A stretch of 35,428 bases of DNA, taken from a virus. A program made the translations under genes and the position numbers. The notes beneath the pieces were generated by a model, which searched no databases, was not told the DNA's origin, and worked only from the letters and a program-made list of their open reading frames with translations. Of the stretch, positions 3,077-29,192 are shown one piece after another; positions within the stretch are counted from its first letter, which is position 1, and each line of letters begins with the position of its first letter. The stretch lies in the IMG/VR virus record IMGVR_UViG_3300021255_000003; one strand, 5' to 3'.

Positions 3077-3784
3077 ATGGATTTTGAGGTAGATGAAAAT
3101 TTAGATTATCAGTTAAATAAAATTGCTTCAATAGTTATAAAAGAAAAAAGGATAAAAAAAGGATATAGTTTAGATGATGTTATAAATAAATTAGATAATA
3201 TAATTACAAAACAATCCTTATATAGATATGAAAATAATGAAGCAAGAATGAAAAATAGAATTTTCAAAAAAATATGTTTAGCACTTAATGAAGATCCAAA
3301 TGAAATTTGGAATGAAATTAATAATAGGTTTTTGAATACTCTATCATACGATAATGCTGATGTGATTGATATTGATAGCGATGTTATTAAAATCCCAGTA
3401 CTCGGTATTATTAAAGCAGGAATACCTATTGAAGCACAGGAAGAAATAATTGACTATGTTGAAATACCTAAAAAATGGACTTTAGGTGGTAAAAAATTCT
3501 ATGGATTAAAAATTAGTGGTGATAGCATGTATCCCAAATATCAAGAAGATGACATAGTTATATTTGAACAAAACGAAGATAAAGAACAATATAACAATAA
3601 AGACTGTGCTGTTATGGTTAATGGTGATGACGCAACATTTAAACAAGTTTTATTAAACGAACAAGGTTTAGTATTAAGGCCTTATAACAATGCTTATGAT
3701 ATTATGATGTATAGTAATGATGATATAGAAAAGTTACCTATTAAAATAGTAGGTATTGCTAGAGAGAAAAGAACTAAATTGTAG
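3077..3784 (+). CDS. CI-like repressor: XRE HTH plus LexA/S24 autopeptidase domain
   Basis: N-terminal HTH (KKGYSLDDVINKL). GDSMYP serine motif with FKQV lysine about 40 aa downstream. Confidence 0.85.
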   Translation: MDFEVDENLDYQLNKIASIVIKEKRIKKGYSLDDVINKLDNIITKQSLYRYENNEARMKNRIFKKICLALNEDPNEIWNEINNRFLNTLSYDNADVIDIDSDVIKIPVLGIIKAGIPIEAQEEIIDYVEIPKKWTLGGKKFYGLKISGDSMYPKYQEDDIVIFEQNEDKEQYNNKDCAVMVNGDDATFKQVLLNEQGLVLRPYNNAYDIMMYSNDDIEKLPIKIVGIAREKRTKL

Positions 3785-4740: not shown

Positions 4741-6186
4741 ATGAATGAAAATTTTTTAGATTTTGATAGTCTATATAATGACTACTATTTAAAATCAAAT
4801 GAATATTATACTAAATGTGCTTGTTATATAAGAGTATCTACTGACGATCAAGTTGAATACTCTCCTACTTCACAATTAAAGCTATTATTAAAATATGCTT
4901 TAGATAATGATTTATTTATAGATAAAAAATATATATTCCACGATGATGGAATAAGTGGTACAAATACAAAGAATAGAGATTCATTTTTAAATATGATAGC
5001 TACTGCTAAATCTAAGCCTAAACCTTTTGAAAAGATAATTGTCTATGATTTTAGTAGATTTGCTAGGAATAAAGAAGAATCAGTAATGTATAAAACATTA
5101 TTAAGAAAAAAACTAAAGATAGATGTTATTAGCATAACCCAACCTCTTACTGAAGGTAAAGAAAGAGTTATATTAGAATCAATGTATGAAGCTATGGACG
5201 AATACTACTCTCTTAACCTATCTGAAAATGTTAGGCGTGGAAAACGTGAAAAAGTTGAACGTGGTGAACATTCAAGCTATGCCCCTTTTGGTTATACTCT
5301 GGTAGATAAAAAACTCGTCATACACGAAGAAAATGCCAAATTAGTTAAGTCTATTTATGATATGTTTATTAATACTGAAAATATTAAGCATATTTGTAAC
5401 ACTTTAAACGATTTAGGTATTAAATCAACGCGTGGTAAGTTATGGGGAAGAAAAACTATAACTTTGATATTAAAAAACAAAACTTATGCTGGATATGTAA
5501 AAAACAGAGATAAATACTATAAAGGTATTCACGAACCTATAATTGCTGAAGAGAAATTTGAAAAAGTACAAAAGATATGGCAATATAGAGATGAACATTT
5601 TAAGAAATGTAAGGATCAGGTTCAACATAACCATTGGTTACGTGGAATATTAAAATGTGGTGAATGTGGATATGGTATGTATTATTTTAAAAGAAAAGAT
5701 AGAGATTATGCTATATTTAATTGTGGAGGTTATACACATAATAGATGTTCTTCTCATTATATTAAAGTTACTGATGTAGAAAATGCTATAATCGAACAAA
5801 TTAAAAATGATTTTACTAATAAAATTGACATTAACATAACTACTAATAATAATGATTCTGAATACAAAATAGCACTATCTAATTTAAAATCTATAGAGAA
5901 TAAACTTGTTAGGATTAAAGAAGCTTATGTTAATGGAATTGATACATTAGAAGAATACAAAGAAAATAAATCTAAACTACAAAATCAATTGGAGGTTGCA
6001 AACAAAAAGATTAAAGAATCACAAAAACCATCTAAAGAAGTTATCTATAAAAAATGTGAACAGGCATATAAGATATTAAGTGATCCAAAAGCTGAAAAGA
6101 ACTTAAAATCAGAAATATCACACAATTTATTTGAAAAAATAACTTATTACAAAGAAAGCAATACCCTTGCTATTACTTATAAATAA
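4741..6186 (+). CDS. int: Large serine recombinase (phage integrase)
   Basis: N-terminal YIRVSTDDQ catalytic motif, resolvase domain, recombinase domain, Cys-rich zinc ribbon (CGECGYGMYY...CGGYTHNRC) and C-terminal coiled coil. Confidence 0.9.
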   Translation: MNENFLDFDSLYNDYYLKSNEYYTKCACYIRVSTDDQVEYSPTSQLKLLLKYALDNDLFIDKKYIFHDDGISGTNTKNRDSFLNMIATAKSKPKPFEKIIVYDFSRFARNKEESVMYKTLLRKKLKIDVISITQPLTEGKERVILESMYEAMDEYYSLNLSENVRRGKREKVERGEHSSYAPFGYTLVDKKLVIHEENAKLVKSIYDMFINTENIKHICNTLNDLGIKSTRGKLWGRKTITLILKNKTYAGYVKNRDKYYKGIHEPIIAEEKFEKVQKIWQYRDEHFKKCKDQVQHNHWLRGILKCGECGYGMYYFKRKDRDYAIFNCGGYTHNRCSSHYIKVTDVENAIIEQIKNDFTNKIDINITTNNNDSEYKIALSNLKSIENKLVRIKEAYVNGIDTLEEYKENKSKLQNQLEVANKKIKESQKPSKEVIYKKCEQAYKILSDPKAEKNLKSEISHNLFEKITYYKESNTLAITYK

Positions 6187-9058: not shown

Positions 9059-9411
9059 TAATTATCACTTCCTTTGTTATTATTTAATACTTGTTTTAAT
9101 TTTTCTGGGATAGGTAAACCTAATTTTTCCCAATTTTCACTGACTGATATTAGCTCCATAAAAATTACGTATAACGATACTCCTGTAGCTATTTTATTAA
9201 TACCAAAAGCCCAACTAAATAACATTGCTACAAAAATAAAAGATAGTTCAGCCATTTTCTTACCTAAACCATCTCTCATTTTTGAACTTTTAACATTGTT
9301 ATTTTTCCATGCATTATAATAGCCTGTAATTATGTCTAACACCATTAATATGCACGGTAAAGATACTGCCCAATAATCATGGGTAAATTTTAAATCTTGC
9401 AAATATTCCAT
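9058..9411 (-). CDS. Holin (phage_holin_4/TcdE-like family)
   Basis: Three hydrophobic segments. [25 protein letters not shown] motif. Directly upstream of the lysin. Confidence 0.8.
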
Positions 9412-14850: not shown

Positions 14851-16338
14851 CTACTGTATAAAAGGACTATTTAATGGACTATTAAGCACATTGTCACTTA
14901 TTGGTGTAACTTCTGTTATTGTTAGATTATCCCATATAATATTAGCTGTTTGTTCTATATCAACATTACGAGTTATATATTCTCCACTCGATATGTTACC
15001 TTCACTTTTTCTTCTTTGATTGTCAAAATAATTAATTTCATTGTTTAAATTGAAAGTACTGGATAATTCATATTCGTAATTAATCAAACTAAATTCTCCA
15101 GCTTGTTTTATGTAAGTAGTTTTTTTCTTGACTAAATATTCTTTTTTTAAGTCATCTAGAGGAGCATTAAAAAAGGTTTTTGAACCTAATGTTAAAAAAT
15201 TGCTTGAGCTATTTATTTTTAATACAATTTCGGGATTGCTATATGTTTTTATGTAAGATTGTGCTACTTTATTAAGTTCATCTGCGTCCAAAATATCATC
15301 TCTGTTCTCATATCTTGTTATGGTTCCTTTTCTTTGTGTTTGATTATTTATTCTTAATATTTCAGAATTATTGATAATTAATTCTCTTCCTTTAATCAAT
15401 GGAGTATAATTAATAATAATTTGTGTACCTGCTGTATAAGAATCATTTTCATTATTTTCAAATGTATTTTTTCCTGCTTCATAATAAAAATCAAACTCTA
15501 TTCCAATTTCTTTATCTGCTTCTGTTCCTATTGTTTTTTCAATACCATTCACAGTAATGCTATTAATAACTCCTATATTACTTGAAGTAGAAAATGTTTT
15601 ATCATAACCATTAGCTATTATTGTTTCCACATAATCAACATTTCCATATACTTGACTACTCTTTATTATTTGTTTATTTCTATAATCATTAGTTGAATAC
15701 TCATACTTAATGTCATTTATTTTGTTTCTCTTAAAATAATCAGCAGTATATTCTAAGTTGATATTTTCCATTAAATAGTCAACATCATAAAAATCAATTG
15801 CTATTGTATTTTCATCAATTAATCTAGTAAACCAAACTGATTGAGATATTTCACTTAAATATTCAAATACATCGTATGGTGTTTTATCAAGTGTAGAATA
15901 AGCACCAATTATTGATGTTGTATCCTTTATATTGATATTTCCTATTACAAACCCATAACTAGATATTGAATCAATTACTTGCTCTATTGCTTCAGGTATC
16001 GTTTTGTTGTTTATAACATAATCTAATGTATCTGATTCACTTAAAAGAGTTGAATAATCTAATATTTGTAAACTACAATAATGTGGTTTTCTTGGATTTA
16101 ATACCATATTGCCACTATTTTTTACTATTCCAGCAAATACTAGTTCATCGTTGTCATATATTAAACATTTTGAATAATCTTTTGGAAAATAGAAATCGGT
16201 TAATAATTTGCTAGTTCCTTTCCATCTTTTAGGATATACTTTATCTAAAATAACTGAAGAAGGGTTTTTCAACTCTTCTTCAATTTTATAAGAACTATCG
16301 CAAATCACTTCTTCATTATCTATGAATATTTTATTCAC
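14851..16338 (-). CDS. Distal tail protein (Dit / siphovirus tail component)
   Basis: Immediately follows the TMP, with GTG overlapping the TMP stop. Size and position are typical. Confidence 0.65.
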   Translation of the reverse strand: MNKIFIDNEEVICDSSYKIEEELKNPSSVILDKVYPKRWKGTSKLLTDFYFPKDYSKCLIYDNDELVFAGIVKNSGNMVLNPRKPHYCSLQILDYSTLLSESDTLDYVINNKTIPEAIEQVIDSISSYGFVIGNINIKDTTSIIGAYSTLDKTPYDVFEYLSEISQSVWFTRLIDENTIAIDFYDVDYLMENINLEYTADYFKRNKINDIKYEYSTNDYRNKQIIKSSQVYGNVDYVETIIANGYDKTFSTSSNIGVINSITVNGIEKTIGTEADKEIGIEFDFYYEAGKNTFENNENDSYTAGTQIIINYTPLIKGRELIINNSEILRINNQTQRKGTITRYENRDDILDADELNKVAQSYIKTYSNPEIVLKINSSSNFLTLGSKTFFNAPLDDLKKEYLVKKKTTYIKQAGEFSLINYEYELSSTFNLNNEINYFDNQRRKSEGNISSGEYITRNVDIEQTANIIWDNLTITEVTPISDNVLNSPLNSPFIQ

Positions 16339-18212
16339 TATTTACCACCACCATAGTTAAATGAATTTTTGGTACCACCTGAAAATACTTTGATGTCATT
16401 AACAAAGGCTCTACCGAATTTATCTACATCCATATCAGCTTCTACATTTACATATATTGGTTGATTATTAGAAATATTTGGTGTTAGATTACCATACATA
16501 TTAGATACATTTACAGAACCATTTTTTAAGAAATCTAGGCCTATAGTATCTTCTATAGTCTTATGAAGTTCTTTTTCGTTTTCTTCAAATCCTTTTTCTA
16601 ATCCTAACATATTCATTTCTCCAACCCAATAAAATTCAGTTGATGGAGAATGTACTCCAAATATACTTTTAACCTTATTCATAATAGATTTGCCTATACC
16701 TGCTACTTTGTTTAATAACCATTGTTTGGCATTGGCAATACCATTCCATAAACCTTGGATAAGATTCTTACCTATATTTTCTATTCCACTTAATCCACTT
16801 CTTATTTTTGTTTTTACATTATTAGGAATACCTTTTACATTATTAAGTAACCAATTAACATTATTTTTAATACCATTCCATAAGCCTTTTATAGCATTAA
16901 TTCCTATCTCTAACCACATTCTAGGCATTGATTTCCAATAATTCATTATTGATTTGATTATTGTAGGAAGATATGCTAATAAGGTAGGAAGTGCTTGTAT
17001 TAAGCCTTGCATTATTCCTATAAGAAGTTGATATCCAGCTTGTATAAATAATGGTAAATTATCTATTAAAACAGGTATCATTTGTAGAATAGCGTCCACT
17101 ATTAATGGTATTAAAGTTGGCATTTCCTTAGCTAGTGCTTGAACTATCATAATACTTGCTTTTATCAAAGCTTGTAATAATTGTGGTAGTATTTTTACTA
17201 TACCTGTAAAAGCTTGTACTATTCCATTCATTAATACTGGTAATAGTGCTGGTAATGCTTGTACTAAACCATTTATTAAATCTATAGCTCCTTTTATTAT
17301 TACTGGTAATAATTTTTGCAATAATGGTGGTAATTCAGGAATTATTCCATTAACCAATCCTATTATTCCTTCAACTATTTTAGGAGCCATCTCTTCAATA
17401 GATTTTACTACAATTTTACTAAAACTCATTAAACTATCTATTACATCTTCTATGCTTCCTGCACCACTTAAAAAATTTGATATAGATGCTTTTAATGTAG
17501 TAAATGAACCAGCAAATGTTTCGTTTTCTTTAGCGTAGTTTCCTGCGTATTTAGATGTTTTTTCTAAAAACATTTGCATAGTAAGTTCTACTTTTTCAGC
17601 ATTTGTCATTTCACTAGTGCTCTTTTTTATACCTTTTGATAAAGCATAAGCATTAAGTGTTGTATCATTCATTGCAACACCTAAGTTATCCATCATCGTA
17701 AAGTTACCTTTTGCTGCTCCTGCAATACTTTCCATTGCTGCGTTAACATCTATTCCCATTACGGAAGCTACATCAGCAGCTCTTTGCATTGCGTCAGTAG
17801 ATAGGCTCATTGATTTTTCTACAGTTAATCCAGCACCTTGCATTAATGAACCCATTTTATTAGCAGTAGCTAAATAATCATTTTGTGAAAGACCCATTTT
17901 TTTGAATGCTTCAGTACCTTTTTTTTGTACTGTATCAGCAAACTTTTCAAAAACAGCTTCACTACCACCTAATTGTTGTTCTAATTCTCCAGCCATGCTA
18001 ACAGATTTCATTACTAATCCGCCTAATGCGGTACTTGCTGCACCTACACCTACAGCTAGGCCTTTGAATACAGTTGCACCTACAGATTTAATTTTATCTA
18101 AATGACCAGGTGTTTTTTTAGCTTCTTCATTTAGGTTTTTCATCCCTTTTTCAGAAGCATTACTATCCGTAGTGACTTTTAATCTTACTTCTGCATCATT
18201 CTTATTTATCAC
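16338..18212 (-). CDS. Tape measure protein
   Basis: 624 aa, Ala/Gly/Leu-rich helical with hydrophobic central repeats. Follows the chaperone genes. The start is ambiguous: GTG at 18212 or AAG at 18203. Confidence 0.85.
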   Translation of the reverse strand: MINKNDAEVRLKVTTDSNASEKGMKNLNEEAKKTPGHLDKIKSVGATVFKGLAVGVGAASTALGGLVMKSVSMAGELEQQLGGSEAVFEKFADTVQKKGTEAFKKMGLSQNDYLATANKMGSLMQGAGLTVEKSMSLSTDAMQRAADVASVMGIDVNAAMESIAGAAKGNFTMMDNLGVAMNDTTLNAYALSKGIKKSTSEMTNAEKVELTMQMFLEKTSKYAGNYAKENETFAGSFTTLKASISNFLSGAGSIEDVIDSLMSFSKIVVKSIEEMAPKIVEGIIGLVNGIIPELPPLLQKLLPVIIKGAIDLINGLVQALPALLPVLMNGIVQAFTGIVKILPQLLQALIKASIMIVQALAKEMPTLIPLIVDAILQMIPVLIDNLPLFIQAGYQLLIGIMQGLIQALPTLLAYLPTIIKSIMNYWKSMPRMWLEIGINAIKGLWNGIKNNVNWLLNNVKGIPNNVKTKIRSGLSGIENIGKNLIQGLWNGIANAKQWLLNKVAGIGKSIMNKVKSIFGVHSPSTEFYWVGEMNMLGLEKGFEENEKELHKTIEDTIGLDFLKNGSVNVSNMYGNLTPNISNNQPIYVNVEADMDVDKFGRAFVNDIKVFSGGTKNSFNYGGGK

Positions 18213-18684
18213 CTACCTTTTTTTCTAAATAGCCCCACATTTTTTCAAAAGCATTGGTATTTTGAATAATTGGTAGACTATACTTGTTTTTCATTTTCAT
18301 CATAAATCTATGTTTTTGTTCTTCTTGTGTTTTTATAGAACTAGAAGGTTTAGTATATGTTCTGTAATATAAAACTTTTGAAATAGTGGAATTGTCATCT
18401 AACATAAAGCCTTCTAGTAATGAATCAAATTCCCACCAGTCTATATCTTCTTTATTTAAGTTAAGTCCGAACTTCCAAAAATCAACGAAATAGTATTTGT
18501 AATCATAATTTAAATCAAAGTTTCTTTCTTTTAATGCTTTTCCACCATTCTGTGGATTAAACAAATATTTAGAAATTTCATTTAAAATATATCTTTGATT
18601 TTCTTTAATATCTAAACCTAAAAGCTCTAATGCTCTTTCACACTTATAAGGATTATCTTCTTCAAATAACTTGAATATTTTCAT
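18202..18684 (-). CDS. Tail assembly chaperone (Gp15-like)
   Basis: Position between MTP and TMP. N-terminal pattern resembles the bacteriophage Gp15 family. Confidence 0.6.
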   Translation of the reverse strand: MKIFKLFEEDNPYKCERALELLGLDIKENQRYILNEISKYLFNPQNGGKALKERNFDLNYDYKYYFVDFWKFGLNLNKEDIDWWEFDSLLEGFMLDDNSTISKVLYYRTYTKPSSSIKTQEEQKHRFMMKMKNKYSLPIIQNTNAFEKMWGYLEKKVGDK

Positions 18685-18725
18685 TATCCTTTTAAAGGTA
18701 GGATAAAACTTATATATTTTACCAT

Positions 18726-19169
18726 CTATTTTAAGTTCCGTAAGTTGTTGATATTCTTCACAAGGTTGGTAATTTGAGTATTTACTGGTGATATTTGTTT
18801 GTTGATAAAAAAATTTAGAAAGTATCCTCTAATATTTTCTATCATTTCTTCAAATTTATATTCTCCTGCTAATTCTTTGAATTTGTCTTTATGTTCTTTG
18901 AAACAAATATCTATAAATCTCTCATCATTTTTTTCTATATTTTCCCCAATTTCTTGTTCTAGTTTTTCTTTTTCTTCAGCTGTTGCTTTTATATAATCAC
19001 TATATTTTTCTTTTCCTAAACTGAATAAAATGTTTTTTATTTCTAACAACTCACTCTCAGTTATTTGCATGGTAAATTCATATTTTACTTCTTCTTCTCC
19101 TTTTTCGTTGATGTTTGTTAATTGAATCAATTCCTCTATTTCATATTTTTTATTTGTTACTTTTAACAT
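18726..19169 (-). CDS. Tail assembly chaperone (acidic, G-position)
   Basis: Acidic 147-aa protein directly after the MTP terminator. SD GAAGGAG. Confidence 0.6.
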   Translation of the reverse strand: MLKVTNKKYEIEELIQLTNINEKGEEEVKYEFTMQITESELLEIKNILFSLGKEKYSDYIKATAEEKEKLEQEIGENIEKNDERFIDICFKEHKDKFKELAGEYKFEEMIENIRGYFLNFFINKQISPVNTQITNLVKNINNLRNLK

Positions 19170-19231: not shown

Positions 19232-19681
19232 TTATGGTGTTGGTGCTACGTAGTCTGTTTCTGCAAAAGTAGAATTATCATATATTTTTAAATCAAAATC
19301 CACTTGTAAAACTTCTTCTGAATTTGCTTCATAAGTTATATTACTTAATGTTGCTGTAAAATCAATTTGTTTTCCGTTAGTACCTTTAAGTAAATTAACA
19401 ATTCTTGTTTTTACTGTTGCCTCTTCACCTACTGCAAATTCTTTACTTAAGATGAATTGACATACAGCACTTGATTTTTTCATTTTTACTGAAGTAGACC
19501 ATGTTGGGTCTAATCCAGTTTTAACGTTGTTTGATAAGAAAGAATATAAATCTTGCCATGTATCAAGTGATTCTCCCTGATCATAACTTAAATTTAGATT
19601 TATTACTTCTTCGTACTGTGCAGTACTAGTTGAACTTATATCGAACAATAATTTAAATTTATTAATTGAACTTTCGTACTT
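19232..19681 (-). CDS. Major tail protein; proposed AAG start at 19681
   Basis: Assigned by position. The track start is a TTG at 19648 with no SD. SD GGAG (19694-19691) plus 9 nt leads to an in-frame AAG. Confidence 0.6.
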   Translation of the reverse strand, partial: KYESSINKFKLLFDISSTSTAQYEEVINLNLSYDQGESLDTWQDLYSFLSNNVKTGLDPTWSTSVKMKKSSAVCQFILSKEFAVGEEATVKTRIVNLLKGTNGKQIDFTATLSNITYEANSEEVLQVDFDLKIYDNSTFAETDYVAPTP

Positions 19682-20071: not shown

Positions 20072-20428
20072 TTATCCCTTCTTTGCTTCATTAATAGCAT
20101 TTACTAGCATTGTTTGATAATCCTTTTTGTATTTATTGAAAGTTTTTTCAAACCATCTAGGTTGAGCTTGTCTGTTGCCAGCTCCAGCTTTACCACCCTC
20201 GTAATATCTTCTTCTAACGTATGGGCTCCTTTCAATTACAAGTCCCTTTTCAAATTGTGAATGCATTTCACCAGACTGATACATCTGTCCTGTATCTCTA
20301 TAAGTAAATTCGTTAGAATCTTTATAAATTTGTTCTGCTATGGATAAAATAGCTTTTTCTTGAGCTTTTTTGACAACATCTTTTTCAACCCAATTAAGTG
20401 CTTTTTCTAAACTATCAAACTTTCTCAT
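20072..20428 (-). CDS. Head-tail joining protein (Minor_capsid_2 / HK97 gp10-like)
   Basis: Track ORF. ATGA overlap with the upstream stop. Family resemblance by eye. Confidence 0.65.
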   Translation of the reverse strand: MRKFDSLEKALNWVEKDVVKKAQEKAILSIAEQIYKDSNEFTYRDTGQMYQSGEMHSQFEKGLVIERSPYVRRRYYEGGKAGAGNRQAQPRWFEKTFNKYKKDYQTMLVNAINEAKKG

Positions 20429-20757
20429 TGTAATAATACCTCATAATGATGAGCATTTACAGAATCAGGATAAAGAGTGGAAGCTTCAACTATTTTATAT
20501 TCTTTGTTATTAAAGATAATTTTACTATTATTAATAGGAGCAGCGGTTAAGCCTAAAGAATTTACTAAATCATAAAACATTCTAGCCGTTGCTACTATTT
20601 CCCGTCCATTTCTTGTTATATTTAGTTTTAAATTATCTTCAATTTTTACAAATCTTAAATTAGTTGATTCTCCCCACTCATCACCTTCACCTGTATTTCC
20701 TAAATACTCTTTATAAACACAACTATGTGGTAGTAGTCTTTTTGGAATTGGTCTCTT
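20425..20757 (-). CDS. Head-closure protein (Minor_capsid_1-like); no canonical start, proposed AAG start at 20757
   Basis: Hand-translated 110 aa: (K/M)RPIPKRLLPHSCVYKEYLGNTGEGDEWGE...HHYEVLLQ. The frame opens after TAG at 20766-20764. The first ATG is 59 codons in. Absent from the ORF track. Confidence 0.6.
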   Translation of the reverse strand, partial: KRPIPKRLLPHSCVYKEYLGNTGEGDEWGESTNLRFVKIEDNLKLNITRNGREIVATARMFYDLVNSLGLTAAPINNSKIIFNNKEYKIVEASTLYPDSVNAHHYEVLLQ

Positions 20758-21257: not shown

Positions 21258-22103
21258 TTAAGCATTTTTTACTTTTACGATTACAGCTTCTGCATTAGTC
21301 AATACATCTGTATAAACCATACGGCCTTGTAAAGCACTTGCACCAATGTGAGAACCATCTTTTAAGTCATTAATAGTTGGCTCTACTTTCCATTCGTCAA
21401 TTGCTTGTGTCCAGTCTACACCATAAACTATATATTCAACATTCTTATCGTTTTTGTCTTTTTCTAAATCTTGTACGATTACATTAACACCGTTGATTTT
21501 TCCAACAACACCATTTCGTGCTAATTCAGCACCAATTTGTGAAGCGGTATTTGAATATTTTTCATCAGTTAATAGTAGTGTTTCAGTTGCATAGTCTATA
21601 GCTACATACATTCTGTTTTTATCAATACCCTTTTTAGCTAATATAGCTATATCTTTTACAATATTTGAATATACGTTTTCAGCAGTTGAATCTTCTTGTG
21701 TTGATGGTGTACCACCTAATAAAGCTTCAATAGCATCAGCTTCTAATGTTTTAGCTACTGAATATGCTCCACTTTCTAGTCTTTGTGCTACTAAATTATC
21801 TGGCACTGCTTGTGCTTCATATCCATCGATTAATTCATTAATTGCTTTATGATTATCAACTGGGATATTTTTATAACTAGTTGCACTTTGAGATAAAGAT
21901 GCACCATCTTTTACATCATAATCATTAATTGCTACATCAGTATTTCTTACTGGTACTTTTACAGCTCCAGCTACTGGACTTCCTTCATAGTCTCTTGAAA
22001 ATGTATTTCTTATTTTTAGACTTGGTCTCATTAACTTAACAATTGCATTAGCAAATCTTTCTTGTCTTTCATGAGTACCATTTGTTCCGATTGCGTTTGC
22101 CTT
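21258..22103 (-). CDS. Major capsid protein; proposed AAG start at 22103 (track ORF starts at ATG 22031)
   Basis: 24 sense codons (KANAIGTNGTHERQERFANAIVKL) lie upstream of the track ATG with no canonical start. SD AAAAGGAG sits 9 nt before AAG, which follows TGA TGA TAA. Confidence 0.7.
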   Translation of the reverse strand, partial: KANAIGTNGTHERQERFANAIVKLMRPSLKIRNTFSRDYEGSPVAGAVKVPVRNTDVAINDYDVKDGASLSQSATSYKNIPVDNHKAINELIDGYEAQAVPDNLVAQRLESGAYSVAKTLEADAIEALLGGTPSTQEDSTAENVYSNIVKDIAILAKKGIDKNRMYVAIDYATETLLLTDEKYSNTASQIGAELARNGVVGKINGVNVIVQDLEKDKNDKNVEYIVYGVDWTQAIDEWKVEPTINDLKDGSHIGASALQGRMVYTDVLTNAEAVIVKVKNA

Positions 22104-22953: not shown

Positions 22954-22968
22954 TAATAAAAAAAATTT

Positions 22969-23046
22969 AGGAGGTAGGACTCGCACTATCCCTACATCTC
23001 TTTTGACCCAAAGGGTGCGTGGACGCAAGATTTTTCCACCTCTCCT
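22969..23046 (-). ncRNA. 78-nt cloverleaf-shaped structured RNA candidate
   Basis: AGGAG/CUCCU closing stem, GUGGA/UCCAC arm, ACCC-UUU-GGGU arm, GUAGG/CCUAC arm containing GUGCGAGUCC (T-loop-like). Followed by AAA-U8. Confidence 0.35.
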
Positions 23047-23058
23047 GTAATTATTATA

Positions 23059-24719: not shown

Positions 24720-25031
24720 TTAATTAAAAAAATTTTTACAAACATCATGTATCATATCATGGCTTTTACTACTTAAATCACATAATATTTCTTCATTATA
24801 ATTTATTTCATCTGATAAATAAGACCAGATATAACAATGCATTAATTCGTGATACAAAGTTTCTTTTTGCTTTTCTTTTGATACTTCTTTATTGATTAAT
24901 ATTTGTTGAGTGCTTAATTTTGTTGCACCATAATAATAACTATTTTCATTATTATCATTAAATACTTTTTTTACTTCATCAGCTGTTGCATAATCAATTG
25001 TCCAATTGTAATTATTCATTTTGAAGTTCAT
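24720..25031 (-). CDS. Small HExxH metallopeptidase-like protein (103 aa)
   Basis: YHELMHCY motif. SD AAGGAG plus 7 nt, then ATG at 25031; the track start at 25058 lies inside the portal gene. Confidence 0.55.
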   Translation of the reverse strand: MNFKMNNYNWTIDYATADEVKKVFNDNNENSYYYGATKLSTQQILINKEVSKEKQKETLYHELMHCYIWSYLSDEINYNEEILCDLSSKSHDMIHDVCKNFFN

Positions 25032-26475
25032 TTGCATTCTCCTTATCACCCATACCATAGAAATCTATTCCTTCAGGTGTAATTATTTTATTATCTTCTT
25101 TTATTTTTTCTATCTCATCTGTTACTTCTGCTTCTTCATAATGTAAATATTTAGTCATGAACTTTTCTTTACTTATTAAACCAGCATTATATAGATTAAT
25201 TCCACGATTAATTAGTGCTTCCTCATCTTGTATAATACTATCATCAAATGTAATAGATATTTCTTTATACTTAATACCTTCCATTTCACATATAGTTGCT
25301 ATTAAATCATATAAAGCATTGTATATTGGAATTTGGTGTTGAGATTTAGTCCTAAATGTATCACTATTTTCACTAACTACTTCAGTAGCAGTTTTTAATC
25401 CATCTTTATCAAATGAATAAAAATCATTACCTAATCTTACACCAGCACTTAAGTATTTTAATTCAGTATTAATGGCTTCTATATATTCATTTCTTAGACT
25501 AAAGTCTATTTCTTTTACTGGTTGATTTTCCATTCCTTCTAGTGCTACATATATGTCATCAGAGGTATCAAAATAACTAGCATAAATGATATTGTTGTTA
25601 TCATCTACTCCTGTAGCTTTCTTTTTAACCGCACTTCTATCTACTAATATTCTTCTTCTACCACTTACATATTCGTGGTCAAATCCATCATATTTAATAT
25701 CTATTGCTTTAAATTTATCTAAATGATTAGCAAGTATTGATAATCCCATTGGGCTACCTGTATCAAAGTTATTTGCTATTGGTAATCTCCATACTTGGAA
25801 TCTTGGATGTTCTGTTTCTATTACTTCATCTTCTTCAATATCAGGATATAATGTAGAAACATCTATTGCTTTTCCTAATGTATTTTCACTTTTTGATTTA
25901 TATAATTCAGTTGCTTTTTTATATTCTCCATTATCATATTCATGATAAGTTAGTAATGTATAATATATTTTCTTATTTTCAGTACCTTCTACTGTTCGTG
26001 ATACTGTTATTATTCCATTTATATACGAATTAGTATATTTATATGGTAAAACAACATCTCCATCTATATAATCTACAATTGTTTTGTCATCCTTTTTATA
26101 TTCAACAGTAACCATCGTACCGTAGGCATATTCTTTTTCTAGAAATGGTAAAAAATTAGTACTAAAACTATTTTCTTTACTATCTAACACATCCCATAAC
26201 TTTTTAGTATTCTTTTTGTTGTCTAATTTTATTTCTGCTCTTTCACTCCATAATAGATTAGAAAAATCTTCACATATTTTCTTTGGCATATTTAAAGTTT
26301 TTCTTTCAACTAAACATTCCTTACCATCAACCAATTTAGCCTTATAGTAGTGAAAATCATTTACACTACCTCTGTAATATTGGTGACAAATTGCCATCAT
26401 ATCATATATAGTTCCTACTACTACGTTGATATTTTTTTTACTTAGTACTTGTTGAATATTATTGTATAGTTCCTT
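25012..26475 (-). CDS. Portal protein (SPP1 gp6-like); proposed AAG start at 26475 (track ORF starts at ATG 26400)
   Basis: The frame is open from TGA at 26505-26503. Strong SD AAAGGTGGTG plus 5 nt leads to AAG. No ATG/GTG/TTG for 25 codons. TAAAG overlap with the upstream stop. Confidence 0.75.
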   Translation of the reverse strand, partial: KELYNNIQQVLSKKNINVVVGTIYDMMAICHQYYRGSVNDFHYYKAKLVDGKECLVERKTLNMPKKICEDFSNLLWSERAEIKLDNKKNTKKLWDVLDSKENSFSTNFLPFLEKEYAYGTMVTVEYKKDDKTIVDYIDGDVVLPYKYTNSYINGIITVSRTVEGTENKKIYYTLLTYHEYDNGEYKKATELYKSKSENTLGKAIDVSTLYPDIEEDEVIETEHPRFQVWRLPIANNFDTGSPMGLSILANHLDKFKAIDIKYDGFDHEYVSGRRRILVDRSAVKKKATGVDDNNNIIYASYFDTSDDIYVALEGMENQPVKEIDFSLRNEYIEAINTELKYLSAGVRLGNDFYSFDKDGLKTATEVVSENSDTFRTKSQHQIPIYNALYDLIATICEMEGIKYKEISITFDDSIIQDEEALINRGINLYNAGLISKEKFMTKYLHYEEAEVTDEIEKIKEDNKIITPEGIDFYGMGDKENANELQNE

Positions 26476-26670: not shown

Positions 26671-28035
26671 TCACTCCTTTATACCTAATTTTCTTAAATT
26701 ATCTTTTACCCAATATTGGTATAAATCACAAGTATGATCTGCATAGTAATAACTTATATCATTTGAATAAGTGTTAAAGTATTCTTCTCCACCTGTAAAT
26801 TCCTTTTCATTTTTATCAGGTATAGGTTTACCCTTTTCAACACTACCTTCTAACCATTGATAATTTTCTATTTCTTTTTTTACTATTTTGTTATTATTGT
26901 TATTAATTATTCTTATTTTGCCTTTGCTTAAAAAAGTTATTGAATAATCTACTAATTCTTCTTTGTCTCTACCTTTATTTACAGGATTAAATCTCTTACC
27001 ATAATCCGAATATAATTGATTTCTTAATGCTCCTTCAGCACTATCTATTGTTTCTCTATCAAGACTAGTTTTATATTTTTTTAACATCGCTATTTCAAAA
27101 TTGAATATATCTTTGGATAATTCCGATGGTGCTCTCTTTTTTGATTTTTCGTGTGGACTATAGTAATAGGTGTCTAACCAATACCAATATCCATCACTTC
27201 CATAGCCGAAACATCCGCATGTGGTAGCACTTGTTTGATGACCACCATCAGCTGAAAAGTCCATATATAATATCCGTACGTTGTTTTTATCTATATAATC
27301 TTCTTCTACCCATTCAAATTGTTCAGGATTATATATCATTCCTTCTAATCCTATTACTTCACCTAAATATATCCATCTATATCTTTTAATATCAAATTGT
27401 TTTATTCTTTCAGCCTCTTCAATTGCGATTCTTCCTATCCATTCTACAGGAACAGTTCTATAGTCACTTAAAGAATATAAAACATTATCTTGTTTTTGTT
27501 TTTCAATAGCCCATTTATTAACCCAATGATATTTATTCTTTGGTGGATTATATGAATATAAAGCCATAAACCAATCATTATTTCCACGTGTAAATGTTGC
27601 TATAATTTGGTCTATATCTTCTGAATTTTTCCATCCTGTCAATTCTTCAAACCAAACTATTTTTATTAATTTGTTTTCATCAATTGTTCCTTTTACTGCT
27701 TCATAATCGTCTCCACCAGCAAAATATATTGTGTTTCCATTAGAAAAAAAAGTTATTTCCATTGGTGCTAATTTTGCTTTATAGTGTATGTTTTCAATTA
27801 ATCCTAATCTTCTGCAGGCTCTTTTAATTTCTTTGTATACTGATTTTCTTAAATCTACTTGGTGTTTTCTTAATACTACTGCAGAACAGTCATTTTCTTT
27901 TATGCAGTTGTATACTATCTTTAAAGAAATCATAGATGTTTTAGTTGAATTTCTTCCTCCTGCATATATCTGATGTGTTTTGTGACTTTTAAATGTTCTT
28001 CTAAAAGAAGGAGCTATTTGAGTACTAATCTTCAT
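26671..28035 (-). CDS. terL: Terminase large subunit (PBSX/Terminase_3 family)
   Basis: N-terminal ATPase pattern (YAGGRNSTKTS Walker A-like). Size and position fit. Confidence 0.9.
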   Translation of the reverse strand: MKISTQIAPSFRRTFKSHKTHQIYAGGRNSTKTSMISLKIVYNCIKENDCSAVVLRKHQVDLRKSVYKEIKRACRRLGLIENIHYKAKLAPMEITFFSNGNTIYFAGGDDYEAVKGTIDENKLIKIVWFEELTGWKNSEDIDQIIATFTRGNNDWFMALYSYNPPKNKYHWVNKWAIEKQKQDNVLYSLSDYRTVPVEWIGRIAIEEAERIKQFDIKRYRWIYLGEVIGLEGMIYNPEQFEWVEEDYIDKNNVRILYMDFSADGGHQTSATTCGCFGYGSDGYWYWLDTYYYSPHEKSKKRAPSELSKDIFNFEIAMLKKYKTSLDRETIDSAEGALRNQLYSDYGKRFNPVNKGRDKEELVDYSITFLSKGKIRIINNNNNKIVKKEIENYQWLEGSVEKGKPIPDKNEKEFTGGEEYFNTYSNDISYYYADHTCDLYQYWVKDNLRKLGIKE

Positions 28036-28417
28036 CTGCTTCAGGTAAATCGTCTATGATTTCAACTCTATTATTAACGGTGCCATCAAATTCTTGTTTA
28101 GTGCTAAATTCATCTTTGGCTTTTCTCTCTAAATACCATTTAGCCATTTCTTTGTCTCCTTTATCTAGAGCTTTATGAACAGCCATTCTTGCCTTTATTT
28201 TTTCGTATTCTTTTAGCATATTAATTCTCTCTAAAAATTCAGGGTATTCAGCTAAATATGCATAAAAAGTAGATTCACGAACATCGGCAAAAAAACACGC
28301 TTCACGATTAGTACACCCCATCATAAAAGCTTCTTCTAATTTTTGTAGTTCTTTTTCTCCTATTGCTCTTGGTCTACCTACTTGATTTCCATTATCTTTT
28401 TTCTTTTTTCTTTTCTT
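28025..28417 (-). CDS. terS: Terminase small subunit; start ambiguous (AAG at 28417 after SD GAAGGTGG, or GTG at 28426 inside the SD)
   Basis: Basic N-terminus plus HTH-like GRPRAIGEKELQKLEEAFMMGCTNREA. Overlaps the terL start. Confidence 0.75.
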   Translation of the reverse strand, partial: KKRKKKKDNGNQVGRPRAIGEKELQKLEEAFMMGCTNREACFFADVRESTFYAYLAEYPEFLERINMLKEYEKIKARMAVHKALDKGDKEMAKWYLERKAKDEFSTKQEFDGTVNNRVEIIDDLPEADED

Positions 28418-28440
28418 TGATACCACCTTCTTACTTTAAA

Positions 28441-28514
28441 TGGTAGCGGATGTTGGATTTGCACCACTCCACAGGCTAAAGAGACCTGTATGCTACTATT
28501 ACACTACACCCGCG
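28441..28514 (-). tRNA. Initiator-tRNA-like gene with anticodon CUU (non-canonical T and D arms), encoded ACCA 3' end
   Basis: 5'-CGCGGGUGUAGUGUAAUAGUAGCAUACAGGUCUCUUUAGCCUGUGGAGUGGUGCAAAUCCAACAUCCGCUACCA-3'. 7 acceptor pairs plus a C1xU72 mismatch. Anticodon arm CAGGU-CUCUUUA-GCCUG. Hand-folded only. Confidence 0.5.
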
Positions 28515-28541
28515 ATAAATAAAACTGCCTAATATAGGCAG
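28515..28541 (-). terminator. Rho-independent terminator (CTGCCTA-TAT-TAGGCAG plus TTTTATTT)
   Basis: Perfect 7-bp stem. The U-tract ends at the first base of the tRNA-like gene. Confidence 0.7.
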
Positions 28542-28694
28542 CCCACTAAGAAAAACAATTGTTTATATTCCCTAATCCACATCAAGAATATTTGCCTTGC
28601 ACCAGTAAAGGATAGATATAGTTATTATTTAATTCTTTCTGCATTCTAATAAAGGAGGTGCGTTTTGAAAGAATACTATAGCAAGGTTCCCACT

Positions 28695-28721
28695 AAAAAA
28701 AGTGCTATTAAGCACCTTTTT
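28695..28721. terminator. Weak bidirectional terminator-like hairpin (GTGCT-ATTA-AGCAC flanked by A7/T5)
   Basis: Lies about 60 nt downstream of the sigma-like gene stop. Confidence 0.4.
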
Positions 28722-28778
28722 CGTAACTATTCCATTTTACACATTATAGCATGTTAGAGGTGTAATAAAAGTGTAATG

Positions 28779-29192
28779 TTATAGTTTTTTTGCAATTTCT
28801 CTATTTATTTGTTTTATCCTATCTATTCCATATCCTAACCTCTCAGCTGTCTGTCTATTAGATAGTCCTAACATGTATCTACACTTGAATACATTTAATT
28901 CTAAATTATTCATATTAGTTATGCTTTTGTATATATCATCTATATAATTTACTATTATATTTTTTTCCTCTATAAGCAATTTTCTATCTTTGTCTAAATT
29001 TTCAACTTTAGCAAAAGCTTGTAAATATTTATCTTCTGTTATACCTACAATTTCTAATTTAATATCAGAATAACTGGATCCTTTTAAATCTAATTTTTTA
29101 TGTATTATAAATTCTATTCTTTCTGTTAATTCTTTTATGGTTCTATCAATTATTATTTTTTCATCTATTTGCTTTTTTAATTGCTTATACAT
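28779..29192 (-). CDS. Late transcriptional regulator (sigma-70 region-4 / ArpU-RinA-like)
   Basis: C-terminal LNVFKCRYMLGLSNRQTAERLGYGIDRIKQINREIAKKL is a region-4 HTH. It is the last gene before the packaging module. Confidence 0.7.
   Translation of the reverse strand: MYKQLKKQIDEKIIIDRTIKELTERIEFIIHKKLDLKGSSYSDIKLEIVGITEDKYLQAFAKVENLDKDRKLLIEEKNIIVNYIDDIYKSITNMNNLELNVFKCRYMLGLSNRQTAERLGYGIDRIKQINREIAKKL

Follow-up and report, generated by a model that had tools for sequence, protein, structure and literature searches.

Can a phage bring along a start codon of its own? The question is raised by a 74-nucleotide (nt) element on the minus strand of IMG/VR virus record IMGVR_UViG_3300021255_000003, a stretch of 35,428 nt which in its entirety is called the window below. 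The window is a temperate phage genome with a G+C content of about 27%. The element resembles a bacterial initiator tRNA, its anticodon is CUU, and genes for virion proteins in the same genome carry a Shine-Dalgarno sequence (SD) followed by AAG. To our knowledge, all natural starts of translation use one initiator tRNA with the anticodon CAU, which reads AUG and its near-cognates. A preliminary description of the window proposed that the phage supplies an initiator-type tRNA for AAG starts. The co-occurrence of AAG starts with the CUU tRNA and the covariation of anticodon and start codon strongly support the proposal. We assign a probability of roughly 0.87 to the view that an initiator-derived phage tRNA (CUU) lets virion genes start at AAG, gating their translation. 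At the level of sequence, the comparisons demonstrate that the tRNA is real and initiator-like, that AAG is located at start positions, and that anticodon and start codon covary across phages.

Start codons and anticodons in the window and its relatives

In the window, stop-to-stop frames on both strands were scanned throughout against canonical starts and SD strength. Exactly five large open reading frames (ORFs) possess a strong SD and no ATG, GTG or TTG nearby. They encode the small terminase (terS), portal, major capsid, major tail and tape measure proteins, and all five have an in-frame AAG at normal start distance from the SD. Not a single early gene of the window combines a strong SD with AAG and the lack of a canonical start. 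The early genes and the other late genes, i.e., those for the large terminase, minor head protein, scaffold and tail chaperone, start with ATG. The preliminary description had listed five virion genes, and possibly the tape measure gene as a sixth, with an SD, a subsequent AAG and no credible ATG, GTG or TTG. This holds for the five genes named above. The case of the head-tail adaptor is weaker: the SD is weak, and the first ATG is located 59 codons further downstream. From its sequence this gene probably belongs to the AAG-start set.

Near the terS start, the sole canonical codon is a GTG which forms part of the SD; an ATG is not reached until 31 codons downstream, and the motif GGTGGTATCA-AAG is kept in relatives. 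In the tape measure gene an in-frame GTG likewise falls inside the SD. The portal start overlaps the stop of a small ORF upstream (TAAAG). The capsid frame opens with AAG, immediately behind an in-frame TAA, and has its next ATG 24 codons downstream, without an SD. Could this be an effect of base composition? Internal lysines in the late genes of the window are encoded 63 times by AAG and 405 times by AAA. Because AAG thus accounts for only 13% of internal lysine codons, AAG at six of six starts is not a composition effect. Other rare synonymous codons in these genes are AGG (7 versus 137 AGA) and TGC (6 versus 28 TGT). The rarity of private start codons may limit spurious internal initiation.

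A separate observation concerns an ORF just 5' of the tape measure gene which has no start codon for 48 codons and overlaps the 3' end of the tail chaperone gene (18202-18828, 18726-19169, minus strand). We considered it as a further AAG-start gene and rejected it, since products of a programmed -1 frameshift (G/GT-like) are usually encoded in this way.

Table 1. Positions of the tRNA, the predicted AAG-start genes and other features in the window
Feature	Positions	Strand	Predicted start codon	SD	Basis or remark
tRNA, probably initiator-derived, anticodon CUU, loop CUCUUUA	28441-28514	-			Rfam tRNA, covariance model R1, covariation
Terminator-like hairpin, then T run	28522-28544	-			Consensus scan; directly 5' of tRNA
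terS	28025-28417	-	AAG 28417-28415	AAGGTGG 28429-28423	PHROG small terminase
Portal	25012-26475	-	AAG 26475-26473	AAAGGTGGTGAT 26490-26479	PHROG portal
Major capsid	21258-22103	-	AAG 22103-22101	AAAGGAGTGAT 22119-22109	PHROG major head protein
Head-tail adaptor	20425-20757	-	Probable AAG 20757-20755	AAAAAGGTAG (weak)	PHROG head-tail adaptor
Major tail protein	19232-19681	-	AAG 19681-19679	GGAGTGA	Position and homologues; no PHROG match
Tape measure	16338-18203	-	AAG 18203-18201	AAAGGTAGGTGAT	PHROG tape measure protein
Serine recombinase (integrase)	4741-6186	+			About 22 kb from tRNA
CI-like S24 repressor	3077-3784	+			

The main evidence comes from related phages. Relatives were retrieved with the large terminase protein: 39 loci from IMG/VR and 33 from GTDB genomes, the latter mostly gut metagenome-assembled genomes (MAGs) labelled 'uncultured Bacilli', Candidatus Onthousia, Candidatus Coprosoma, 'Tenericutes' or Clostridia. 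In these approximately 70 loci tRNAs were located with ARAGORN and a covariance model of our own. About 40 loci have a tRNA at the same place, just 5' of terS. Its anticodon is CUU in most of them, CCU in one (L031), GCA in five and CAU in two (L033, L052). The ORFs of all loci were labelled by homology to window proteins, and the codon at the aligned start was read.

The start codon follows the anticodon. The portal gene starts with AAG in 28 of 28 CUU loci, with AGG in L031, and with ATG or GTG in all 22 loci which have a CAU tRNA, a GCA tRNA or none. For the major capsid gene the corresponding figures are AAG in 21 of 21, AGG in L031, and ATG in 22 of 22. The major tail gene starts with AAG in 17 of 17 CUU loci, with AGG (AGG GCA CAA) in L031, and with ATG in all four loci of the third group. 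Relatives therefore do carry the RNA together with AAG at the same starts, and at these three genes AAG occurs only in company of a CUU tRNA. The preliminary description would have given way to ATG starts in homologous phages that lack the RNA, with no covariation. Homologues without the RNA have ATG (GTG at some portals), yet anticodon and start codon covary. Furthermore, in many loci AAG directly follows an in-frame stop, which makes an upstream start impossible. When all ORFs of at least 90 codons are considered, the combination of a strong SD, AAG and no canonical start is encountered in 88 of 618 in CUU loci and in 0 of 542 in the other classes (Fisher P 8e-26, a value which overstates independence because the loci are phylogenetically related).

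Membership in the AAG set drifts, and it does so only within tRNA-carrying phages. The minor head gene has AAG in three loci. The tape measure gene has AAG in three (window, L006, L034) and ATG in L035. At the head-tail adaptor, AAG is restricted to the window and L001; in the majority of the remaining CUU phages an ATG, in a few cases a TTG or GTG, is found one codon upstream of the aligned position.

L031 with its CCU anticodon has AGG at the starts of terS, portal, capsid and major tail; its closest relatives have AAG there. In terS of L031 the frame from the old AAG position stops after two codons, and the start is shifted by one base to AGG. If our reading is correct, the switch of the anticodon was accompanied by no fewer than four matching changes of start codons, a coordinated evolution of the code for which natural examples are rare.

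Further lineages were found by scanning IMG/VR for the initiator-like 5' end, and other initiator-type tRNAs with non-CAU anticodons were recovered. An unrelated low-GC lineage (L077/L176) has a CCU tRNA with the loop CUCCUAA. Here, a terS-like ORF and the genes for portal, minor head and major head have an SD, an in-frame AGG and no canonical start. In the five GCA loci the tape measure gene begins with TGC in all five, as the first codon after a stop and 9 nt after GGAGG. Among closed ORFs of at least 70 codons in the GCA loci no cognate starts were seen; the TGC of the tape measure came from a dedicated scan. In all pairs found, i.e., CUU/AAG, CCU/AGG in two lineages and GCA/UGC, the start codon is the exact Watson-Crick complement of the anticodon. 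Initiator-type tRNAs thus coexist with the complementary non-AUG codon at starts defined by an SD.

Two GCA phages contain an additional short ORF of 43-49 codons 5' of the tRNA (L008 at 1264, L009 at 273, plus strand). It has an SD (GGAGGG or GAAGGG), then TGC, and no canonical start. Possibly it is a second UGC-start gene.

Fold and family of the tRNA

Is the element in the window a tRNA at all? The 74 letters of the minus strand were exactly as first reported. The Rfam tRNA model (RF00005), proposed as a check, matches positions 28445-28513 of the minus strand with 38.6 bits, above the gathering threshold of 29 and not at noise level (E = 7e-5 when the whole window is searched, 1e-6 for the local region alone). 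R1, our covariance model of the relatives, gives the window copy 66 bits (E = 2e-15). The cloverleaf which had been drawn by hand was verified in every feature. The acceptor has C1 opposite U72, then seven pairs, and a UA linker follows. The D stem is GUGU/GCAU with a D loop lacking GG, the anticodon arm is CAGGU-CUCUUUA-GCCUG, and the T loop UGCAAAU with G55 sits on a stem of three Watson-Crick pairs and a G x A. The 3' end consists of A73 and an encoded CCA. Judged by its letters and predicted fold, 28441-28514 is a real tRNA.

Many relatives possess a canonical 7/5 cloverleaf which is nearly that of tRNA-fMet. They read 5'-CGCAGGG...CCCUGCAACCA, resulting in C1 x A72, G2:C71, C3:G70 and A73, have a GAGC/GCUC D stem (A11:U24), and reach up to 85-88% identity with phage tRNA-fMet(CAU) genes. 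In an alignment of 13 members 98% of the cells are paired, and compensatory changes occur at 14 of 20 pairs. Position 1 never pairs with 72; the combinations are C x A, C x U, A x A or G x A, i.e., base 1 may be C, A or G. Within the 13-member alignment G2:C71, C3:G70 and A73 do not vary; an exception outside the alignment is the GCA member L048 with A2:U71. Of the three G:C pairs typical of an initiator anticodon stem, G30:C40 alone is kept throughout the family.

The window copy is one of a subfamily that numbers at least 12 distinct sequences, drawn from independent assemblies. They have an 8-position acceptor, i.e., the mismatch and seven pairs, and a 4-position T stem, an 8/4 architecture in which the coaxial stack keeps its usual 12 layers. 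G2:C71, C3:G70 and A73 are present. In the 12 distinct members this structure is 95% paired, the acceptor 100%, and compensatory changes are seen at acceptor pairs 4, 6 and 7. Covariation supports all four helices. Furthermore, D loop and T loop change together: among 34 distinct sequences a D-loop GG is combined with U55 in 20 and a D-loop AG with G55 in 14, and mixed forms do not occur. This covariation suggests that the elbow contact (G18-psi55) is compensated, not decayed, and that the tRNA would be folded and functional. By predicted structure the window copy is a derived 8/4 variant in a family of otherwise tRNA-fMet-like members.

A curious relative of these molecules is present in L004 at 9224-9318 (plus strand), about 215 nt 5' of its CUU initiator-type tRNA. 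Acceptor, D arm, T arm (loop UGCAAAU) and ACCA are all present in this tRNA-like element (22 bits on R1). In place of the anticodon arm there is a 36-nt insert.

Initiator identity, charging and rival explanations

Which kind of tRNA is this? With tRNA-fMet, including the phage tRNA-fMet(CAU) genes, the family shares the 1x72 mismatch, G2:C71, C3:G70, A73 and G30:C40; the 7/5 relatives alone also share the D stem with A11:U24 and the high overall identity. It differs in the anticodon, which is CUU (CCU or GCA in relatives) and not CAU, in the loop CUCUUUA with U37, and in U31.G39. The window subfamily differs in addition by its 8-position acceptor, the 4-position T stem, U11:A24 and an A18/G55 elbow. 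The claim that the window tRNA bears initiator hallmarks is therefore borne out for the mismatch (C1 x U72, no Watson-Crick pair), for G2:C71 and C3:G70, and for A73. It fails for the three consecutive G:C pairs of the anticodon stem, of which two are kept (G29:C41, G30:C40). The middle pair, 30:40, is the essential one of the three, and natural au/GC/gu variants exist (PMC5389676). The tRNA cannot be placed within tRNA-fMet proper because of the CUU anticodon, the incomplete G:C motif and, in this subfamily, the missing purine 11:pyrimidine 24. It equally cannot be placed among elongator tRNA-Lys(CUU), because of the 1x72 mismatch and U37; that class has a paired 1:72, a t6A purine at position 37 and a 7/5 architecture, and only anticodon and A73 fit. 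The preliminary description had set the molecule apart from elongator tRNA-Lys and had read its anticodon as CUU in the loop CUCUUUA, both correctly. Most likely, to judge from these sequences, the tRNA descends from a bacterial initiator tRNA-fMet with a change of the anticodon from CAU to CUU.

How would it work? Lying at the head of the late operon, the tRNA would be co-transcribed with it and released from the transcript by RNase P and 3' trimming. It would be charged, most likely by the host lysyl-tRNA synthetase (LysRS), and possibly be formylated. It would then enter the ribosomal P site at initiation and pair with an AAG at normal start distance behind a strong SD. Six targets are predicted, namely the five genes with a strong SD and the head-tail adaptor. 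Since AAG is unreadable for the host initiator, synthesis of these proteins would depend on the phage tRNA. This would amount to a gate at the level of translation, perhaps a licence or timer. The targets are abundant or assembly-critical proteins; in GCA phages the only one is the low-copy tape measure. We speculate that a tRNA with GCA and A73 is a poor substrate of cysteinyl-tRNA synthetase, which would fit such a low-copy target.

The determinants for the formylase, i.e., the 1x72 mismatch, G2:C71 and C3:G70, are intact. Methionyl-tRNA synthetase (MetRS) depends strongly on CAU. LysRS and the arginyl and valyl enzymes (ArgRS, ValRS) are driven by the anticodon and accept A73. Consequently, the CUU form should carry lysine. 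Judged by the match of anticodon and start codon across phages, the CUU tRNA may also be formylated, bind IF2 and enter the P site at initiation.

Several observations weigh against AAG initiation as proposed here, in addition to the relatedness of the loci. ARAGORN reports no tRNA in the window, a miss which is explained by the 8/4 architecture. U31.G39 interrupts the run of 29:41, 30:40 and 31:39; position 37 is an unusual U; and the 8/4 subfamily has U11:A24 in place of the purine 11:pyrimidine 24 of an initiator, versus A11:U24 in the 7/5 relatives. Lysine on an E. coli initiator mutant is reportedly a poor formylase substrate, as Li, Kumar, Varshney and RajBhandary are said to have found in 1996. 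Next, some lineages do not conform. Phages of about 33% G+C (L196, L198, L199, L201, L210, L211, L216, L219) have a further initiator-type CUU tRNA with A1 x A72 and the loop CUCUUUA (in L216 at 1375-1451), and their starts at terS, portal and capsid are canonical. No clear AAG regulon emerged in the DNA of this lineage that was examined; the tape measure gene of L216 (from 11798) has AAAGGAGATGATTAAA-AAG as an ambiguous start candidate. Initiator-type tRNAs with a GAC anticodon, which reads GUC, are present in L105 (9491), L129 (reverse complement, 11171) and L136 (reverse complement, 1857). They read CGCAGGG...CCCUGCAAC, encode no CCA and stem from phages of about 44% G+C. An SD-based scan identified no GUC-start genes in this lineage, which has no clear SD usage. 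Finally, the hosts are uncultured low-GC gut bacteria available as MAGs only, and cultured phage genomes yielded no nucleotide match and, in a protein search, only portal matches of at most 35% identity. Another lineage in which the scan was of limited use is that of the GC-richer phage L101 (reverse complement, 7640): its initiator-type tRNA has the loop GUCCUAA (CCU) and no encoded CCA, and AGG starts were not identified by the SD-based scan, again with no clear SD usage.

Three other explanations have to be weighed. According to the first, the tRNA is an AAG-reading initiator which delivers methionine or formylmethionine, by way of a CUU-tolerant MetRS or a phage or host factor. An N-terminal methionine would be functionally neutral, the homologous proteins of other phages do start with methionine, and the content of the window is neutral with respect to the amino acid charged. 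We nevertheless consider this improbable given the established dependence of MetRS on CAU. In addition, the natural anticodons CUU, CCU and GAC all belong to anticodon-driven, A73-compatible isotypes, and the scan of window proteins, which covered a subset of the ORFs, revealed nothing like a synthetase gene.

The second explanation takes the molecule for an ordinary elongator tRNA-Lys(CUU) which supplements the rare AAG codon. AAG behind the SDs would then be a coincidence, and the true starts would be near-cognate codons weakly read by the host tRNA-fMet. Codon supplementation is the common explanation of phage tRNAs, AAG is rare in these genomes, and ARAGORN labels the relatives tRNA-Lys(ctt). 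An elongator, however, would hardly retain the 1x72 mismatch while base 1 varies, a near-invariant G2:C71 and C3:G70, and 85-88% identity with tRNA-fMet. Nor would it account for the several genes in which AAG directly follows an in-frame stop, so that no other start is possible, for starts that track the anticodon (AGG with CCU, TGC with GCA), or for homologous starts which are ATG where the tRNA is absent. We regard this explanation as very improbable, more so than methionine charging.

That the element is a decayed tRNA pseudogene or attachment-site remnant, the late genes being mis-assembled or having unrecognised starts, is hardly credible: the window copy is atypical (no D-loop GG, G55, a 3-bp T stem plus G x A, an extra acceptor position) and goes undetected by ARAGORN, yet the same atypical form recurs with compensatory changes in at least 12 distinct sequences of independent assemblies, the oddities of D loop and T loop covary, the position 5' of terS is fixed, and the integrase is about 22 kb off. 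The last two points led us to reject an attachment-site remnant. Sequencing errors at the start sites were rejected as well, since the same pattern is present in dozens of independent assemblies. So was reinitiation without a start codon, which cannot explain a codon that tracks the anticodon.

The preferred reading, a phage initiator that opens AAG-start genes, can be generalized. We think it quite likely, with slightly less confidence than for the window itself, that orthogonal initiation codes are in natural use among phages of low-GC gut bacteria, each with a private start codon (AAG, AGG, UGC, possibly GUC), gated virion proteins and non-methionine N-termini, and that these codes are evolvable, entire lineages having changed the anticodon along with several start codons.

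Precedents and surroundings of the tRNA

Are there precedents? Initiator tRNA anticodon mutants initiate at complementary codons, AAG and GUC among them (PMC11744186), in agreement with the preliminary description, which had pointed to engineered anticodon mutants. Preprints exist which, at least in part, deal with orthogonal initiation by an i-tRNA-AAC. The engineered initiator tRNAs (amber CUA, 'U35U36' CUU, GAC, AAC, orthogonal systems) share with the phage tRNAs an initiator body, a changed anticodon and a complementary non-AUG start behind an SD. The phage system is different in being natural, in being tied to a set of virion genes, and in comprising at least three anticodon/start-codon pairs. 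A natural phage initiator tRNA with a non-CAU anticodon was not known to the preliminary description and was not found in the literature either, with subscription journals thinly covered and a prior description possible. As far as found, a natural private-start-codon system is new and has engineered analogues only.

The other precedent is the recoding of stop codons by phages. Borges et al. and Peters et al. are said to have described phage suppressor tRNAs and in-frame stop codons in late genes in 2022. The logic is shared: a phage tRNA is needed for late or structural genes, and the special codons are concentrated in late genes. Here, it is the start codon that would be reassigned, the anticodon is a sense anticodon, and the tRNA is of the initiator type and not an elongator suppressor. 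No in-frame stops are present inside the late ORFs of the window. If true, start-codon reassignment is a new kind of deviation from the genetic code and the counterpart of phage stop-codon recoding.

The practical consequences are obvious. Gene callers will truncate or miss the terS, portal, capsid, tail and tape measure genes of such phages, and tRNA annotators will label the tRNAs as tRNA-Lys, tRNA-Arg or tRNA-Cys. The pairs CUU/AAG, CCU/AGG and GCA/UGC would be evolution-tested parts for orthogonal translation initiation. The system may also serve as a model for limiting the synthesis of virion proteins to the lytic phase, or for keeping this synthesis private from competitors.

In the window, the tRNA is positioned at the head of the minus-strand late module, in which PHROG matches identify small and large terminase, portal, minor head protein, major head protein, head-tail adaptor and tape measure. 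As originally claimed, it is located between a putative terminator and the terS SD, with the hairpin at 28544-28522 on one side and AAGGTGG on the other; this SD begins 11 nt 3' of the CCA. The gene 5' of the tRNA (28779-29192) had been termed a sigma-like late regulator. Its position is as stated; the sigma identity amounts to a sub-threshold match to Sigma70_r4.

Between this gene and the tRNA there is a leader of 264 nt (28515-28778, minus strand). Within it are a -10 element resembling TGcTATAAT, a further hairpin with T run (about 28702-28715) and, at about 28640-28655, the sequence CACCUCCUUU, which is identical to the 16S anti-SD. A low-threshold Rfam scan of 28380-28900 had the tRNA as its only match. 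The region may be a regulated or antiterminated leader.

Further downstream, between the minor head and scaffold genes, the window encodes a skipping-rope RNA (22966-23049, minus strand; RF02924, 55.3 bits, threshold 36.7). In its stead several relatives have an ordinary tRNA-Pro(UGG) at a comparable position, about 4-5 kb past the terL start. It is located at 14910-14986 in L004, 7452-7526 in L005, 3951-4028 in L034 and 14484-14561 in L048.

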